A stretch of DNA of 5,747 bases from a virus (taxonomy: Duplodnaviria; Heunggongvirae; Uroviricota; Caudoviricetes). Location of the stretch: IMG/VR virus record IMGVR_UViG_2617270951_000013, one strand, 5' to 3'. The stretch's first letter is position 1. Every line of letters starts with the position of its first letter. A program made the position numbers and the translations under genes. The notes beneath the pieces were generated by a model, which worked only from the letters and a program-made list of their open reading frames with translations, was not told where the DNA came from and did not search any database. Shown one piece after another: positions 1-5,747 of the stretch.

Positions 1-597
1 TTATGCCTGGACAGTATGCATCAGACCGGCCATTTCATCTTTTACTGACTGAACTTGTGGCCCGATAACAACCTGCAGGTTATGTTGATTAAGTTGTACT
101 ACGCCAATTGCCCGATTGTCCTTCAGTGCCTGCACATTAACAAGCGACATATCTTTCACAGACAAACGCAGACGGGTAATGCAGTTATCGAGGCTGACAA
201 TATTGTCGGCACCGCCTAATGCTTCGAGGATTGCAGGAACGTTGTAACCTGATTTACCCGGCGCACCGGCAACGGCTTTTTCGATTGAGCTGGCAACTTC
301 GCTATCGCGCCCCGGGGTTTTCAGATTGAAGCGGGTGATAGCGAAACGGAAGATGACGTAGTAAACGACAAACCAGATTGCCGCCACCACTGGCACCATG
401 TACCACTTGGTTGACAGACCATGCAAAATACCGAACACCACGAAGTCGATGATATTGCCGTCGGTATTACCGATGGTGACGCCGAGCACAGACATGACGG
501 TGAAGCCGAGGCCGGTTAACAGCGCGTGGATGACATACAGAACTGGCGCTACGAACAGGAACAGGAATTCCAGCGGTTCGGTAGTTATAGCGCGGCG
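1..597 (-). pseudogene. 3' fragment of a glucose-family PTS EIICB permease gene (PtsG/MalX-like); roughly the N-terminal 60 percent of the gene is absent
   Basis: Minus-strand frame ending at TAA (3..1) encodes EIIC C-terminal helices (TTEPLEF, FVAPVLYVIHALL, KTPGR) followed by the EIIB phospho-cysteine motif CITRLR. PTS-like sequence stops near 597 and the frame meets a stop at 624..622, leaving about 195 C-terminal codons of what is normally a ~480-530 aa protein. Confidence 0.75.
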
Positions 598-602
598 ATT
601 TT

Positions 603-667
603 TTTGATACCGATTTGCATTTCATTTGATACCGCTGAAAAACGCCGATACGCAACTTATTTGATAC
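603..667. repeat. Three direct copies of TTTGATAC (603-610, 625-632, 660-667) next to the element boundary; candidate recombinase/transposase or arm-type binding sites
   Basis: Copies 1 and 2 are 10/10 identical (TTTGATACCG) and exactly 22 bp apart; copy 3 is TTTGATACTA. They sit between the PTS fragment and the mom stop. Confidence 0.35.
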
Positions 668-683
668 TAAATCGGCGCTTTTC
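637..683. terminator. Hairpin flanked by A/T runs on both sides, about 30 nt downstream of the mom-like stop; possible bidirectional intrinsic terminator
   Basis: Perfect 7-bp stem CGCCGAT (643-649) / ATCGGCG (671-677), extendable to 13 bp with one mismatch (637-649 vs 671-683), 21-nt loop. On the minus-strand RNA the stem is followed by UUUUUC; on the plus strand by CUUUUCUUUUG. Confidence 0.35.
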
Positions 684-713
684 TTTTGAGTTTTAGAATG
701 AGTTTTTAAGCGT

Positions 714-1451
714 TCATTCACTCTCTTTCAAACCAGTTTTAACTGTTTGTGGTTTTGGGTAAGGCTGGACTTTGAATAGCTTTGTGTTAAGGCGTTTTCT
801 GGCTCTCTTGTCCAGAAACCGGATGTAACGAAACTGACGGAATTTATGAACACTGGCTCTGTCGATATTAGCCCGCAGATGTTCACCTCGCTGTCCTCCT
901 CGTTTGATTGCATTCTTGCAAATCTCGTGATACCACTCGCCATCAAGTTCATAGAATGTTGTTTCATGACTGCCTACATAATCAAAATTGCTTGCCTGGT
1001 ACACGACACCAAGACAGCCACAACGCTCATCTGCAAACGACTGAACCCACTGCACCTGCGGATAAAGTTGTCTGATTAGTTTGAGCGCGTAACTGATTGC
1101 CCTTGATTCGGAGTTTCTCGGCATACAGTCATGCAGCCATAACCGGTTAAGCTCCATATATTCGCGGTTCTGCGTGCCAGTTACGACGCGTGCACCATTG
1201 TTTGGATTAAGGGCATAACCCCATTGCATTACGCCAACCAGCTCCCGTTCTGAAAATATGCCCAGATGAAGGTAGGAATTATTTACGAAACGATGGCTGT
1301 AATGTTTATTGACGACGACCAGCCGGGCCAGCCAGCAACTTATTGTCTCAACCCGTAACTCACGGGAGCCATAACCGACGATATTGTCGTTATAGTGAAT
1401 AAGTTCAGGCGTGCTGATGATACGGGATGTAACTTGCTTTCTGTTCCCCAC
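714..1451 (-). CDS. mom: Mom-like DNA modification enzyme (phage Mu Mom family, adenine-modifying anti-restriction function); start codon uncertain
   Basis: Long minus-strand ORF ending at TGA (716..714) whose 5' end overlaps the 3' end of a Com-like zinc-finger gene in another frame, as in Mu com-mom. The only in-frame ATG upstream (1613) would overlap all of com, so the proposed start is GTG 1451..1449, preceded by AAGGA (1466..1462). The track ORF 714..1646 is an over-extension. Confidence 0.6.
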
Positions 1452-1605
1452 GACAGGATTTCCTTGTGTATGTGGGGTGCTCTGTGGCGCTCTGAGATGT
1501 GATTTGATTGAGGGTTTTACAGCGCGGACATTTAACTTCCAGATAACTGAAGCTGGCTCGTGCCAGTAGCTTGTTACAATGTCGGCACCGTATGTTTCGA
1601 TACAT
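1405..1605 (-). CDS. com: Com-like zinc-finger translational activator of mom (66 aa)
   Basis: ATG 1605..1603 preceded by GGAGG (1620..1616). Product [14 protein letters not shown]...VKCPRCK has a CxxC-15 residues-CxxC zinc-finger at residues 7/10/26/29 and an EHPT motif, both recalled from Mu Com. Its stop (1407..1405) lies inside the mom frame. Confidence 0.75.
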
Positions 1606-1648
1606 GGCCGCATAACCTCCTGCTTTGTTGTTGATATCTTTATCACTC

Positions 1649-1673
1649 AATCGATCGACAAAAACGATCGATT
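1649..1673. promoter_or_regulatory. Perfect 9-bp inverted repeat AATCGATCG / CGATCGATT (7-bp spacer), each arm containing a GATC Dam site; candidate methylation-sensitive operator or promoter element for com-mom
   Basis: Arms at 1649-1657 and 1665-1673; GATC at 1653-1656 and 1666-1669, with a third GATC at 1735-1738. The repeat sits about 45-70 bp upstream of the com ATG on the transcribed side. Confidence 0.4.
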
Positions 1674-1861
1674 TGATTTATTTAATTGATACAACAAATA
1701 ACACGAAATGTCATTAGCGAAAATTTATGAGTTTGATCACTAATTTTAAACGGTGCTGTAACGCATAAGTGCTGAATGATTGTACATTTGAATACCGCAA
1801 AGCAAACAAATCAACTAATTTATAGAAGTCAATTGGTTAATTGCCAGCGTAAGAGGCTGCT

Positions 1862-2155
1862 ATGGACAATCATGTAACGACGAGAAATCGAAAAATGATT
1901 GAAAATGCGGAAATCTATAATGATTATTTTTCCGATTATTCAGATGCCTGCAAATACAGTTCGAGTGCGGGAGAGTTCATATGCTTCAACTTTTTTATTA
2001 AATCTTATGTTTTTCCTCCACAGCAAGAAGATGGAGGTGTGCCACCTCCTGAAATCACTTTGCACCGTATAGCCTCCGTCTCAATGATGGAGCAACAGGC
2101 TAATGAGCTGTATAGCATTCTGGGAACGATTCTACAAAAGCGTGAATCGGACTAA
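1862..2155 (+). CDS. Hypothetical 97-aa protein (orphan ORF in AT-rich island), divergent from com-mom
   Basis: ATG 1862 preceded by AAGAGG (1851-1856) with a 5-nt spacer; a 291-nt open frame in markedly AT-rich DNA where stops are frequent; TAA stop at 2153-2155. No recognisable motif. Confidence 0.4.
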   Translation: MDNHVTTRNRKMIENAEIYNDYFSDYSDACKYSSSAGEFICFNFFIKSYVFPPQQEDGGVPPPEITLHRIASVSMMEQQANELYSILGTILQKRESD

Positions 2156-2322
2156 TGATACCGGTTCATTTGCCTGCCCGGATGGGGAAGCAGGATTGAC
2201 TGCTCCATAAGCAGCTATATTTCTGAATACGAAATACTATCCAGCGATTACATATGGCTGGATAGCGGCAAAGATGTTTTCATTAGTGTCAAACCGGCAG
2301 AGGACACCACCGGTTTGTATTG

Positions 2323-2577
2323 TTACATCATGGTACTGTCAGTTCCGGGCTGAGCCGGGTCTGGTTGCTCTGGCTGCGCGTCGGTTTTCGGCTCATTATC
2401 AGCATCACTGGCCGCAACTGCTGGCCCAATAAGTTTTGCCAGCACTTCATCAACGTAAGTGTCGATTTGTGCCTCAAAATCCTTGCGGACCTGCGCTTTC
2501 AGCAACTTATTTACTTCACCGGAATACAGTGCCTGTTTTACCAGGTCTTCAGTGACGGTGCCTTTAATTTCTGGCAT
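2323..2577 (-). CDS. Hypothetical small acidic protein (84 aa) with predicted N-terminal amphipathic helix and Pro/Asp/Glu-rich tail
   Basis: ATG 2577..2575 preceded by a strong SD AAGGAGGA (2590..2583); net acidic composition (about 16 D/E vs 8 K/R); TAA stop 2325..2323. Confidence 0.6.
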   Translation of the reverse strand: MPEIKGTVTEDLVKQALYSGEVNKLLKAQVRKDFEAQIDTYVDEVLAKLIGPAVAASDADNEPKTDAQPEQPDPAQPGTDSTMM

Positions 2578-2612
2578 GTATATCCTCCTTATGCGGGAAT
2601 AAAGCCCTGCAA

Positions 2613-2795
2613 TCAGGGCTGGGTCGGGTCTTTTGGGAGCGGAGTTACCTGCGCTGTTTTACTGAGTTTTTCAGCTGCTGCGTCCTCAATTTTGCGGCGA
2701 ACATAATTTCTGATGGCCTTATAACCACCACTCACCAGATATAACGCACATACTGCCGTGCAGAAATACAATAAAATAAGCTGTAAAAATGTCAT
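2613..2795 (-). CDS. Hypothetical small membrane peptide (60 aa): one N-terminal hydrophobic helix plus a basic/charged tail
   Basis: ATG 2795..2793 just downstream of GGGAGGG (2805..2799); product MTFLQLILLYFCTAVCALYLVSGG... then KAIRNYVRRKIED...; TGA stop 2615..2613. The track ORF starts at a TTG (2807) that lies inside the SD, so the ATG is preferred. Confidence 0.5.
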   Translation of the reverse strand: MTFLQLILLYFCTAVCALYLVSGGYKAIRNYVRRKIEDAAAEKLSKTAQVTPLPKDPTQP

Positions 2796-2810
2796 TATCC
2801 CTCCCAATTA

Positions 2811-2827
2811 TTGACATGGTGTTGACA
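2811..2827 (+). promoter_or_regulatory. Two tandem consensus -35 hexamers (TTGACA at 2811-2816 and 2822-2827); candidate plus-strand promoter with only weak -10 candidates
   Basis: Exact TTGACA twice, 11 bp apart. Downstream -10 candidates are imperfect: TAATAT at 2832-2837 (15-bp spacer from the first hexamer) and TAAAAA at 2846-2851 (18-bp spacer from the second). Confidence 0.25.
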
Positions 2828-2890
2828 CCGGTAATATCTGTTAGGTAAAAAGGTGCACTGCATTTTTTGCTTTGGATATAACGATCTTTT

Positions 2891-2932
2891 TGCCGCCGGT
2901 TTCTTGTTTTCCCTTACCGGCGGCATTTTTTT
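2891..2932 (+). terminator. Strong plus-strand rho-independent terminator
   Basis: Perfect 10-bp GC-rich stem TGCCGCCGGT (2891-2900) / ACCGGCGGCA (2916-2925), 15-nt loop, then T7 (2926-2932). On the minus strand the stem is followed by A-runs, so it is oriented for plus-strand transcripts only. Confidence 0.6.
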
Positions 2933-2939
2933 ATCCTGC

Positions 2940-4994
2940 TTACGCGTTATTCACTTCCACCACGATACTGTCAATCAGTACCGGGTAAGTCGCATTTTTA
3001 GTGATATCGGTCACGCGCAACTTGTCTGCCGTAAACGTGCCGACCGGAGACTGCGACAGCATGAATGGTGTCCCGTCCTTACCATCAATGACCGGCGTCA
3101 CCTCAATACTGTTGTTACCGGCAAAACGGAAGCCCAGCGTATGCCATTCGTTATTAAATGCGCCGAATGACCCCAGCTTCGTGTTCTGCGCCGTGTTTCC
3201 TTTGTGATACATCACGTTAAGGTCTGTGGCATCGCTCTGTACGTAAAACGATGCCAGCAGGTTATGACCGGCATTACCTTCCAGTGTGACGCCCTGAGGA
3301 AGCGAAGAAACCGGCCAGTACAGCGCCAGTGCGTACTGATTAGCCGTAAGCGCGCCATCAAGTTTAAAACGACAGCTGACAAGGCCACCTTTTTCCAGCA
3401 GGTCGGCACCATTACCGGCATCATGCTCAAGGTACCAGGGGGCTCTTCCTGTTTCCTTAGTCATTTTCATTGCCTTACCCCCGCTGGCTCCGGCATCATC
3501 CACGATTTGAGCCTTGCCACCTCCGGCAGCCCAACCCTGTGGTGTCAACCGTCCTTCAGACTCAGATGCCCGGTAAGCAAATAGCGTACTCATCGTCGTG
3601 GTGTCTGCGGGTGGCGTGGACGGTTTTGATGGTGTATCAGGTGACGGCTTCTCATCCGGTGGTGTCACGGTCTGCCCGCGCATCAGTTCAGCCGTGCGCC
3701 CTGCATGGAGCATAATAGCTGAGGCCAGACGGTCTGAAATGACGCCCCTGCGTGCCCATGAGCTGAAATGGCTGTCACGCTGTGTCGAAACAAAACTGCC
3801 CTGGGTTCGGGATGCTGCACCGTAATACCCGACAGCCACAATATCCGGGTCTTCCGCCGGAGCATTCGTTGGCGTGCTCTGTCCATTCTCATCCGTCAGG
3901 AACGGTACAAAGAAAATTTTCTGTGCTTCCTTGCCTTTGTAGCCACCGTATACTGCCTCATATTTATCGGTGCCAGCGTTTTTCCAGTAATACGTGGTAT
4001 CACCGCAAATCCACGGCACCGTGGTGGCATTTCCACTCACGCACTGCGCAGCAAGCGGAGCCAGGTCAGTTCTGAACTGCTGAACCATGGCCGTGAATAA
4101 ACTATTATGCTGCTGGCTTCCTGAGGCAAGGTCTGCCTCTCCCTGCATCCAGACCACAGCCAGAAGTTTGTTTTTCGGGTTTTTCGCCAGCGCGACTTTG
4201 GTGCGGCTTACCAGGTCCTGATACAGAGGTTTACCGGCCCCCCAGCGTGAAGAATCAGCGGAAGCACCGCTGGCCTCACTGAATGAGCCGTCGGCTCCAG
4301 TGGTGAATGCTGACCCGCCACGACAACAGGGCACCAGAAGTATCCCGGCATTCTGTGGGATATAGGGAAGCAGTTTTTTGGCAATATGCAACCCCTGACC
4401 GACAGTCCCGTACTGGCCTTTTGCCAGATCAGCTTTCGGGTGGTTTATCCCGCTCATATCCTGAACATCATGCAGGCAGTGGTCTGCCGGAATGATGTCG
4501 TTGTATGTACACGACGTACCGTTGGGCGTTACCGTACTGCGGCGTGCCAGTTGCTTAATGCGTGGGTCCGGGCGGTCAAACGAATCCGGTAACGGCAGCC
4601 CCTCGCCGTAGGCCATGCCATTTGACTGACCCGCGAGAATGACAACAAAGTAATATTCCGGCTCTGAACTGCTGCCATTCGTGCTACCGGAAGGCCCGGC
4701 GTTATCCGGTGCATTCCAGTCGGAGGGCGTGAGCGTTCCGGCCACGTCAGATGTGATTGGAATGATGCCAGTCACGCCTGAACTGGTGATTTCTGCACTG
4801 GGATTACCGGATACCGGCATTACCCATAATGGCTCTTTCGTGCTGAAGCGGATCACGCAGTCTGCGAAGGTGATCCCCCCTTTATTACCCGAAGGGCGGA
4901 AAGGGCTTTCAATAAATGCCACCGTGCCACCGGCAACCTTGACTGAAAACTCTCCGGGCATGGCGGAGAGCATTTTCCACTTGGAGTCTGACAT
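2940..4994 (-). CDS. 684-aa multidomain esterase: N-terminal ~110-aa domain, SASA/SGNH-type carbohydrate esterase domain (sialate O-acetylesterase-like, comparable to prophage NanS-p), Pro/Ser/Thr-rich linker, C-terminal ~200-aa beta-rich putative lectin domain
   Basis: ATG 4994..4992, TAA 2942..2940. GQSN motif (residues 122-125, nt 4631..4620) and a downstream QGEAD block, which I recall as SASA-family hallmarks; linker TVTPPDEKPSPDTPSKPSTPPADTTT; C-terminal region rich in beta-type residues with no catalytic motifs. Confidence 0.8.
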   Translation of the reverse strand: MSDSKWKMLSAMPGEFSVKVAGGTVAFIESPFRPSGNKGGITFADCVIRFSTKEPLWVMPVSGNPSAEITSSGVTGIIPITSDVAGTLTPSDWNAPDNAGPSGSTNGSSSEPEYYFVVILAGQSNGMAYGEGLPLPDSFDRPDPRIKQLARRSTVTPNGTSCTYNDIIPADHCLHDVQDMSGINHPKADLAKGQYGTVGQGLHIAKKLLPYIPQNAGILLVPCCRGGSAFTTGADGSFSEASGASADSSRWGAGKPLYQDLVSRTKVALAKNPKNKLLAVVWMQGEADLASGSQQHNSLFTAMVQQFRTDLAPLAAQCVSGNATTVPWICGDTTYYWKNAGTDKYEAVYGGYKGKEAQKIFFVPFLTDENGQSTPTNAPAEDPDIVAVGYYGAASRTQGSFVSTQRDSHFSSWARRGVISDRLASAIMLHAGRTAELMRGQTVTPPDEKPSPDTPSKPSTPPADTTTMSTLFAYRASESEGRLTPQGWAAGGGKAQIVDDAGASGGKAMKMTKETGRAPWYLEHDAGNGADLLEKGGLVSCRFKLDGALTANQYALALYWPVSSLPQGVTLEGNAGHNLLASFYVQSDATDLNVMYHKGNTAQNTKLGSFGAFNNEWHTLGFRFAGNNSIEVTPVIDGKDGTPFMLSQSPVGTFTADKLRVTDITKNATYPVLIDSIVVEVNNA

Positions 4995-5069
4995 CGTCTT
5001 TTCTGCCTGTTTCTGAATTAAACAGAGTCAGAATAGCGACCGCTGAAAAATATGTGTTTTGCGGAAATT

Positions 5070-5099
5070 CAAAAAAGCGTCACGGTACTTTTGGTGACG
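5070..5099 (-). terminator. Candidate minus-strand intrinsic terminator overlapping the invertase stop codon
   Basis: 6-bp stem CGTCAC (5078-5083) / GTGACG (5094-5099), 10-nt loop; on the minus-strand RNA it is followed by CUUUUUUG (5077..5070). The stem is short, so confidence is modest. Confidence 0.35.
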
Positions 5100-5652
5100 G
5101 AGCTGGTGAGGCAGGAAAATAACGATAAAGGGGGGAAAGGCCAATATCAAATATCAGTGCGATTTGTTTACGGGACTCGCCATTAGCCAGCAAACGGGCG
5201 ATTTGCTCCCGCTCTTTCTCTGTCAGTTTCTGAGGTCTGCCGCCATGACGCCCCTGAGCACGGGCAGCAGCAAGACCCGCGCGTGTACGTTCAATAATGA
5301 GTTCCCGCTCCATTTCCGCCAGCGCGCCCATTATATGGAAAAAGAAACGTCCCATGGGAGTGGATGTATCAATATTGTCCGTAATGCTGCGGAAGTTAAC
5401 GCCGCGTTGCCGGAGTTCTTCTGTTAAAAGGACAAGGTGCTGCATACTGCGTCCAAGGCGATCCAGTTTCCAGACCAGCAGGGTATCCCCTGGCCGGAGT
5501 CGCTTTAATGCGCGTTTAAGTCCGGGACGCTCCCTTGTCTTACCGCTTATTCTGTCTTCGAAAAACAGCTCACATCCTGCACATTCCAGCGCATTTCTTT
5601 GTAGCGCCGTATTCTGGTCATTTGTTGACACCCTGATATACCCAATCAGCAT
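5080..5652 (-). CDS. Serine-recombinase DNA invertase of the Gin/Pin/Cin/Hin family (190 aa)
   Basis: Product begins MLIGYIRVSTNDQ (catalytic Ser motif) and carries GYIRVS, LDRLGRS and a C-terminal HTH-like region; ATG 5652..5650 preceded by AAGGA with a 6-nt spacer; TGA stop 5082..5080. Confidence 0.92.
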   Translation of the reverse strand: MLIGYIRVSTNDQNTALQRNALECAGCELFFEDRISGKTRERPGLKRALKRLRPGDTLLVWKLDRLGRSMQHLVLLTEELRQRGVNFRSITDNIDTSTPMGRFFFHIMGALAEMERELIIERTRAGLAAARAQGRHGGRPQKLTEKEREQIARLLANGESRKQIALIFDIGLSPLYRYFPASPAPSPKVP

Positions 5653-5717
5653 ACGATTTCCTTATTATAAAAAGCCGGAATTGTCGCATGAGGAATAAAA
5701 CAGAGTTAATCCTGGCT

Positions 5718-5743
5718 TTCCTGAAAACCTCGGTTTACGGGAA
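5718..5743. other. 26-bp gix/hix-type crossover site (TTCCTGAAAACC-TC-GGTTTACGGGAA) upstream of the invertase gene
   Basis: Two inverted 12-bp half-sites ending in AAACC / GGTTT around a 2-bp core, matching the Gin/Hin/Cin/Pin crossover-site pattern as I recall it; it lies about 66 bp upstream of the invertase start. Confidence 0.7.
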
Positions 5744-5747
5744 ACGG

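Follow-up and report, generated by a model that had tools for sequence, protein, structure and literature searches.

A probable right end of an Sp18-type Mu-like prophage within malX, bearing phased repeats as predicted transposase sites

The window analyzed here, a stretch of 5,747 nucleotides taken at its full length, begins with a 3' fragment of malX, the gene for a PTS maltose EIICB, on the minus strand (1-585; nt 1009-1593 of 1593, i.e., codons 337-530 and the stop codon). The DNA is from E. coli, and this fragment was 100% identical over 585 nt to the same part of the K-12 gene. An earlier sequence-only reading of this DNA had recognized a PTS EIICB gene on the minus strand, correctly, but had carried its homology to about position 597, which is 12 bp too far; the alignment with K-12 malX parts at 585/586 (...GGTAGT/GCCGCC in K-12 versus ...GGTAGT/TATAGCGCGG in the window). 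Since the two sequences diverge at exactly this point, malX is split after nt 1008 of 1593. The few unrelated codons that the reading had seen beyond the PTS homology are present, the malX frame continuing past the junction for 12 codons (of the ...KNRRAI type) to a stop at 624-622. By an exact-protein look-up with the truncated MalX, the identical junction was found in contig JAATAZ010000001.1 of assembly GCA_029999515.1 (L009), where malY and add lie downstream of the malX fragment. As described below, what follows the junction is prophage DNA, and the fragment is separated by it from its own promoter and 5' part.

In both the window and L009 there was no malX identity beyond 585 in any frame and no replacement 3' end, and PTS homology going on beyond 598 in another frame, which the reading had named as a sign of frameshift, was likewise absent from the K-12 alignment in every frame. 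The explanation that malX is only frameshifted or rearranged, with diverged malX or an unrelated local rearrangement downstream and no insertion at all, draws on several unrelated assemblies (L005-L008 and L010) in which malX is split by 1-nt indels, yielding the same 164-aa C-terminal ORF with no prophage; these are either real pseudogenes or assembly errors. However, the window and L009 match malX perfectly up to 585 and not at all thereafter, and the next 5.1 kb are prophage DNA known from elsewhere. We therefore give this explanation practically no weight.

The part of the window from 586 to 5747 carries, in this order, mom, com, a small ORF without family match, DUF826, DUF1378, a 684-aa SASA/DUF6645 protein and a Gin-like invertase. 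The last gene before the junction is mom (DNA adenine modification; 714-1451, minus strand; Pfam Mom, E = 8e-78), whose product is 78% identical to Mu Mom and which is annotated by RefSeq in sister copies of the element. Its start is overlapped by com, the zinc-ribbon translational activator of mom (1405-1605, minus strand; Pfam Zn_ribbon_Com, E = 7.5e-13). The com-mom pair, which the sequence-only reading had put at the right end in its Mu-like model, is located immediately beside the junction. About 50-65 nt upstream of com, at 1649-1673, lies a 9-bp inverted repeat, AATCGATCG...CGATCGATT, with two GATC sequences (1653 and 1666), an arrangement akin to the Dam/OxyR-controlled cluster of GATC sites that precedes Mu mom. 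The only plus-strand gene in the window is a 97-aa ORF at 1862-2155, which had no Pfam or PHROG match; Sakai Sp18, the relative introduced below, has a different, 154-aa ORF in its place. Between the invertase and com-mom, at 2323-4994 on the minus strand, stand the three genes for the 684-aa SASA (sialate O-acetylesterase-like)/DUF6645, DUF1378 and DUF826 proteins. Mu has nothing between its invertase and com-mom. The three-gene block resembles the nanS-p/DUF1378/DUF826 block of lambdoid Stx phages, and its identity to the corresponding block in Sp18 is no more than 70-79%. The Gin-like serine DNA invertase itself (5080-5652, minus strand) has Pfam Resolvase and HTH_7 matches. Next to it, at 5718-5747, is a gix-like crossover site, TTCCTGAAAACCTCGGTTTACGGGAAACGG, closely matching Mu gixL (TTATCCAAAACCTCGGTTTACAGGAAACGG), and the end of the window is the edge of the invertible tail-fibre segment.

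Between mom and the junction the sequence contains a hairpin and a set of short repeats. The hairpin that had been reported near the repeats corresponds to an inverted repeat of 13 nt, 92% complementary, at 637-649/671-683. Read on the minus strand from 683 to 637, the RNA forms a 13-bp stem followed by UUUUU, with a folding energy of -23.2 kcal/mol (z = -4.2; none of 200 shuffled sequences was as stable). The mom stop codon (714-716) is located 30 nt upstream of it. This hairpin, at 637-683 on the minus strand, is the intrinsic terminator of com-mom. A simple terminator scan missed it because of its 21-nt loop. Since an A/T tract is present on both sides, termination could be bidirectional, and the A-tract on the other side suggests that the hairpin may also stop transcription arriving from the host flank.

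The repeats share the motif TTTGATAC, which occurs three times, at 603, 625 and 660, always on the plus strand, where 0.21 occurrences are expected and none of 200 shuffles reached three. As the sequence-only reading had stated, two of the copies are identical 10-mers, TTTGATACCG, at 603 and 625, exactly 22 bp apart; the third reads TTTGATACT. The similarity extends beyond the motif to units of about 16-23 nt (595-610, 617-632 and 652-667), and 610-632 is 78% identical to 645-667.

In order to place the DNA beyond 585, we compared it with complete genomes and annotated prophages. At least 13 complete E. coli genomes carry the 5.1 kb from 586 onward at 99.6% identity, at differing chromosomal loci, and the matches to the prophage part in these genomes begin each time at window position 583-586; copies of the element elsewhere in chromosomes have sequence in common with the window only from 586 on. 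Positions 586-712 match the right end of prophage Sp18 (E. coli O157:H7 Sakai) without a difference, and 586-1714 (the mom region) is 94.7% identical to Sakai Sp18. Relatives of Sp18 in STEC include Phi804-3 and the Mu-like phages of CC119. Sp18 also shares with the window the gene order of invertase, esterase-like gene, DUF1378, DUF826, com, mom and end, and has the same left-end sequence as the window's sister copies; it differs in being inserted in sorM rather than malX, in the block 2294-5652, which is only 70-79% identical, and in the small plus-strand ORF. Sp18 has been described as Mu-like and as undergoing packaging without circularization (PMC2669165), the insertion sites of its relatives are strain-specific (PMC7430833, PMC10132054), and, like Mu, it has six putative transposase binding sites (PMC2628397). 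The element is of an already known kind, the Sp18 family. In the Sakai annotation both ends of Sp18 (5040971..5079729) are given approximately, and no duplication is mentioned. A megablast search of 50,697 phage records returned only short matches of 74-78% identity, none of them to Mu, and no close sequenced phage.

A full copy of the element, from strain AST198, is a Mu-like phage of 37,058 bp. It encodes a repressor, a ner-like HTH protein, a 680-aa transposase, a MuB-like AAA ATPase, gam, mor and lysis functions, as well as Mu-type portal, F-protein and protease head genes and a contractile tail. No integrase is present in the annotation of this full copy, in which the sole recombinase is the Gin-like invertase. 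The 337 bp of the left end were found in 233 of 5,426 genomes, inside many different genes. Of the two models offered by the sequence-only reading, that of a Mu-like transposable phage end has thus held, given the varied sites and the presence of a DDE transposase and a MuB-like ATPase without an integrase. The other, site-specific integration in the manner of e14 in icd, in which an integrase would recombine an att core within a gene's 3' part and the lost gene end would be replaced by one from the element, is suggested superficially by a prophage boundary that lies inside a gene and by a frame that stays open for 12 more codons. It is wrong on the evidence of the many unrelated loci at which the same end is found, the full copy that has a DDE transposase and a MuB-like ATPase in place of an integrase, the position within malX, which is broken mid-gene after nt 1008 of 1593 and receives no substitute coding sequence, and the flanking repeats, which are 4 bp long and different at each site. 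No combination of an integrase, a duplicated att core and a replacement 3' end was seen, the junction repeats varying from site to site, and we regard site-specific integration as having next to no chance of being correct. We conclude with high confidence that 586-670 (plus strand) is the right end (attR) of an Sp18-type Mu-like transposable prophage that was inserted by DDE transposition into malX at codon 336/337; it starts with 5'-TATAGCGCGG..., the transferred strand ending in ...TA-3'.

To define the termini and the target duplication, both junctions were read for seven independent complete Sp18-type insertions, in sorM, flgK, flgL, gspM, ypdB, glrR and betT (loci L001, L002/L004, L013-L016, L019/L020 and L042-L045), the window copy being the one in malX. 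The copy in AST46 is the same ypdB insertion as that in DLI.5a and adds no independent site, and NE 1092-2, in which the right end is deleted, was left out of the duplication test. An exact 4-bp direct repeat flanks all seven insertions and is specific to each site (TAAA, TGAT, TGCG, CCCG, CAGT, TACG and GTTG). Readings with shifted boundaries that would give a 5-bp or 6-bp duplication fail at every site (7/7). When the flanks were joined with one copy of the 4 bp, intact glrR and flgK were obtained (216/216 identity), and because these reconstructed empty sites match the intact genes, the copies are simple insertions with a 4-bp target duplication. The seven insertions share their right terminus, 5'-TATAGCGCGG, and, except for TATAACC in strain M3, their left terminus, 5'-TGTAACCAGG. 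Every copy read, like the ends from three other genera, has 5'-TA at the right; at the left most copies have TG, and strain M3 has TA.

Going by these seven insertions, TAGT at 582-585 is the predicted right-hand copy of the 4-bp target-site duplication in malX, and we infer a second TAGT at the left junction of this insertion, which lies beyond the window. If the model is right, the left junction would read ...CACCTGGTTACA/TAGT/GCCGCCAACGACG..., giving the Sp18 left end and then malX backwards from nt 1008. Look-ups with the truncated MalX and the 684-aa protein did not reach this left junction.

Of the hallmarks that the sequence-only reading had proposed for a Mu-like element, a transposase gene and a TG left end are seen, whereas the right end is TA and the duplication is 4 bp and not 5 bp. 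The target duplication of Mu is 5 bp, and one of 6 bp has been reported for B3. What is unexpected about the element is confined to the 4-bp duplication and the TA terminus. The searchable literature made no mention of either in Mu-like phages, although a 2002 comparative study of Mu-like prophages may cover them.

We then considered the repeats in relation to the termini, counting offsets from the terminal T (586 = +1). At the right end TTTGATAC(C/T) stands at +18, +40 and +75, and at the left end, inverted, at +18, +113 and +165, in two diverged Sp18 variants. In the whole 37,058-bp prophage TTTGATAC occurs seven times, versus 0.46 expected per strand, and six of the seven are the end copies; the sole internal copy lies between the transposase and MuB-like genes (prophage coordinate 33511 in AST198, L002/L004). 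Three binding sites are accordingly predicted in the window, all on the plus strand: R1 at 588-611 (core TTTGATACC at 603-611, +18), a putative end-binding site with an inverted counterpart at +18 from the left terminus; R2 at 610-633 (core TTTGATACC at 625-633, +40), 22 bp from R1; and R3 at 645-668 (core TTTGATACT at 660-668, +75), 78% identical to R2 over 23 nt. As a cross-genus footprint, Mom-linked right ends were compared in species representatives of other genera. In Edwardsiella anguillarum, Symbiopectobacterium and Sodalis, a TATAGCGCG terminus and the motif at +18, +40 and +75 are kept while the spacers have diverged; further genera have a TGTAGCG terminus and other motifs, also in 22-bp phase, including Mu-type GCGAAAG sites.

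These repeats could instead serve another protein or RNA role where the mom operon ends, for example as part of the terminator context or as binding sites for a host factor or the repressor/Ner, with the transposase recognizing other terminal bases. The location of R3 in the loop of the mom terminator would agree with this, as would the additional internal TTTGATAC between the A and B genes. However, a motif placed at +18 from both termini, inverted, and three times per end is the classical arrangement of Mu-type sites; the mom operon is absent at the left end; the positions of the motif are kept across genera while the spacers vary; and relatives with a different terminus have different motifs in the same 22-bp phase. 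Another role is accordingly improbable, and from their position, orientation and conservation 588-611, 610-633 and 645-668 are most likely the transposase sites R1-R3. In the 95-bp spacer between L1 and L2 of the left end we also observed a 9-bp inverted repeat, ATCACCTGT...ACAGGTGAT (about 12245-12285 of L004), kept in the AST198 and Sakai variants, which may serve to end transcription of the repressor gene or to bind a host bending protein.

The arrangement was compared with Mu attR, which likewise has com-mom and gin at the right end. The sequence-only reading had objected that the spacing of the repeats does not fit Mu; this was mistaken, because the cores of Mu R1 (GCGAAAG at 21) and R2 (GCGAAAA at 43) are also 22 bp apart, like R1 and R2 of the window, so that the spacing fits Mu and the recognition sequence alone differs. 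The two systems further share a terminal site at a similar distance from the terminus, three sites per end with L1 far from L2/L3, a DDE transposase with a MuB ATPase, and a terminus resembling T(G/A)(A/T)AGCG. In contrast, the Mu sites follow the MuA consensus with CGAAA, whereas direct comparison of the ends showed the motif TTTGATAC and no CGAAA-type sites in the Sp18-type element; Mu R3 is adjacent to R2 and inverted, while R3 of the window has the direct orientation at a distance of 35 bp from R2; and Mu has TG at its right terminus versus TA here, with a duplication of 5 bp in Mu versus 4 bp in Sp18-type elements. In site consensus, TG right terminus, 5-bp duplication and DNA similarity, the element falls outside Mu in the strict sense (Muvirus). 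Its right end works like Mu attR, and it belongs to the Sp18 family.

The transposase was examined in the AST198 copy (680 aa), which has a Mu-transpos_C match (E = 2e-17) and belongs to phrog_310; at Pfam E <= 1e-3 no domain besides Mu-transpos_C was found. Its catalytic and C-terminal parts share 25% identity with MuA, while in a BLASTP comparison with MuA no part of the N-terminal region, where the end-binding domains of MuA lie, could be aligned. The different recognition motif agrees with a transposase that is only 25% identical to MuA and cannot be aligned with it in the N-terminal region. The catalytic residues D293 and D359 align with D269 and D336 of MuA, and E399 is likely the third, as read from a conserved IER motif; BLAST did not bring this motif into alignment with MuA E392. 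By sequence, the transposase core scores better against the cores of retroviral integrases (E about 1e-4) than against MuA chains (E about 0.2). The B protein of the same copy has Phage-MuB_C and AAA_22 matches and is 49% identical to Mu B. The ends of Tn7-like and Tn552-type elements, with an rve-type DDE core and several sites of about 22 bp, resemble the window element in having several phased sites per end, and rve core similarity is detectable in the Sp18-type transposase too. Sp18-type elements differ from these in being complete myovirus-type phages with Mu-like head, tail, lysis, gam and mor genes, and no TnsA, TnsC, TnsD or resolvase-type module was seen in their annotation.

Taken as a mechanism, the phage would have inserted by DDE transposition at malX codon 336/337, splitting the gene. 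The direct sites R1-R3 and the three inverted copies at the left end would position transposase subunits at the termini, and the terminal 3' ends (...TA-3' at the right and ...CA-3' at the left) would be nicked and attached to target DNA whose two strands are cut 4 bp apart. Changing the TTTGATAC cores to TTTCTTAC would be predicted to abolish transposase binding. The com-mom operon is transcribed in the direction of the prophage end, and the hairpin around R3 is its terminator.

The L009 contig with the same junction as the window shows 20 mismatches to it, and the locus ends inside the transposase gene, whose product has HTH_Tnp_Mu_1 and Mu-transpos_C matches. The invertases of the window and L009 differ by one residue, and the look-up with the 684-aa esterase-like protein returned only a 4.1-kb contig. 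Nineteen of the 20 differences cluster in about 220 bp (window 3245-3463, in the DUF6645 gene), which looks like a recombination patch rather than point mutation. The prophage in L009 is internally deleted, the transposase gene abutting tail genes. L009 is the only contig found with the same junction, and with this deletion the malX copy may no longer be mobile. Internally deleted copies were observed at L009 1-4400 and L001 25100-30500, where a transposase gene or a truncated DNA-binding gene abuts tail-sheath fragments; with such deletions in several copies, many chromosomal copies are defective remnants in which both ends are retained.

It may be that Sp18-type elements, together with the related ones in Edwardsiella, Sodalis and Symbiopectobacterium, make up a separate branch of Mu-like transposable phages, a proposal that we make tentatively and hold at somewhat less than an even chance. 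Such a branch would be marked by an integrase-like DD(40)E core, TTTGATAC sites, a ...TA-3' right terminus that is tolerated or required, and a 4-bp stagger. This combination of DD(40)E core, TTTGATAC, TA and 4-bp stagger was not found described in the searchable papers, although Morgan et al. 2002 (J Mol Biol 317:337) may contain it.

For annotation, these results mean that malX of the strain from which the window derives is a pseudogene disrupted by a prophage, with the boundary of the element at 585/586, and that the repeats at 586-670 are the mark of a transposable-phage end and not of an att site. Automatic delimiting of these prophages would be helped by simple rules, namely TTTGATAC at +18, a target duplication of 4 bp and the termini TATAGCGCGG...TGGTTACA. 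For work on the geometry of the transpososome, the 4-bp stagger and the TA terminus would be of interest, although the system that they refine is a known one. Members of the Sp18 family are common among pathogenic E. coli, the left end being present in 233 of 5,426 complete genomes, and they inactivate genes at random.
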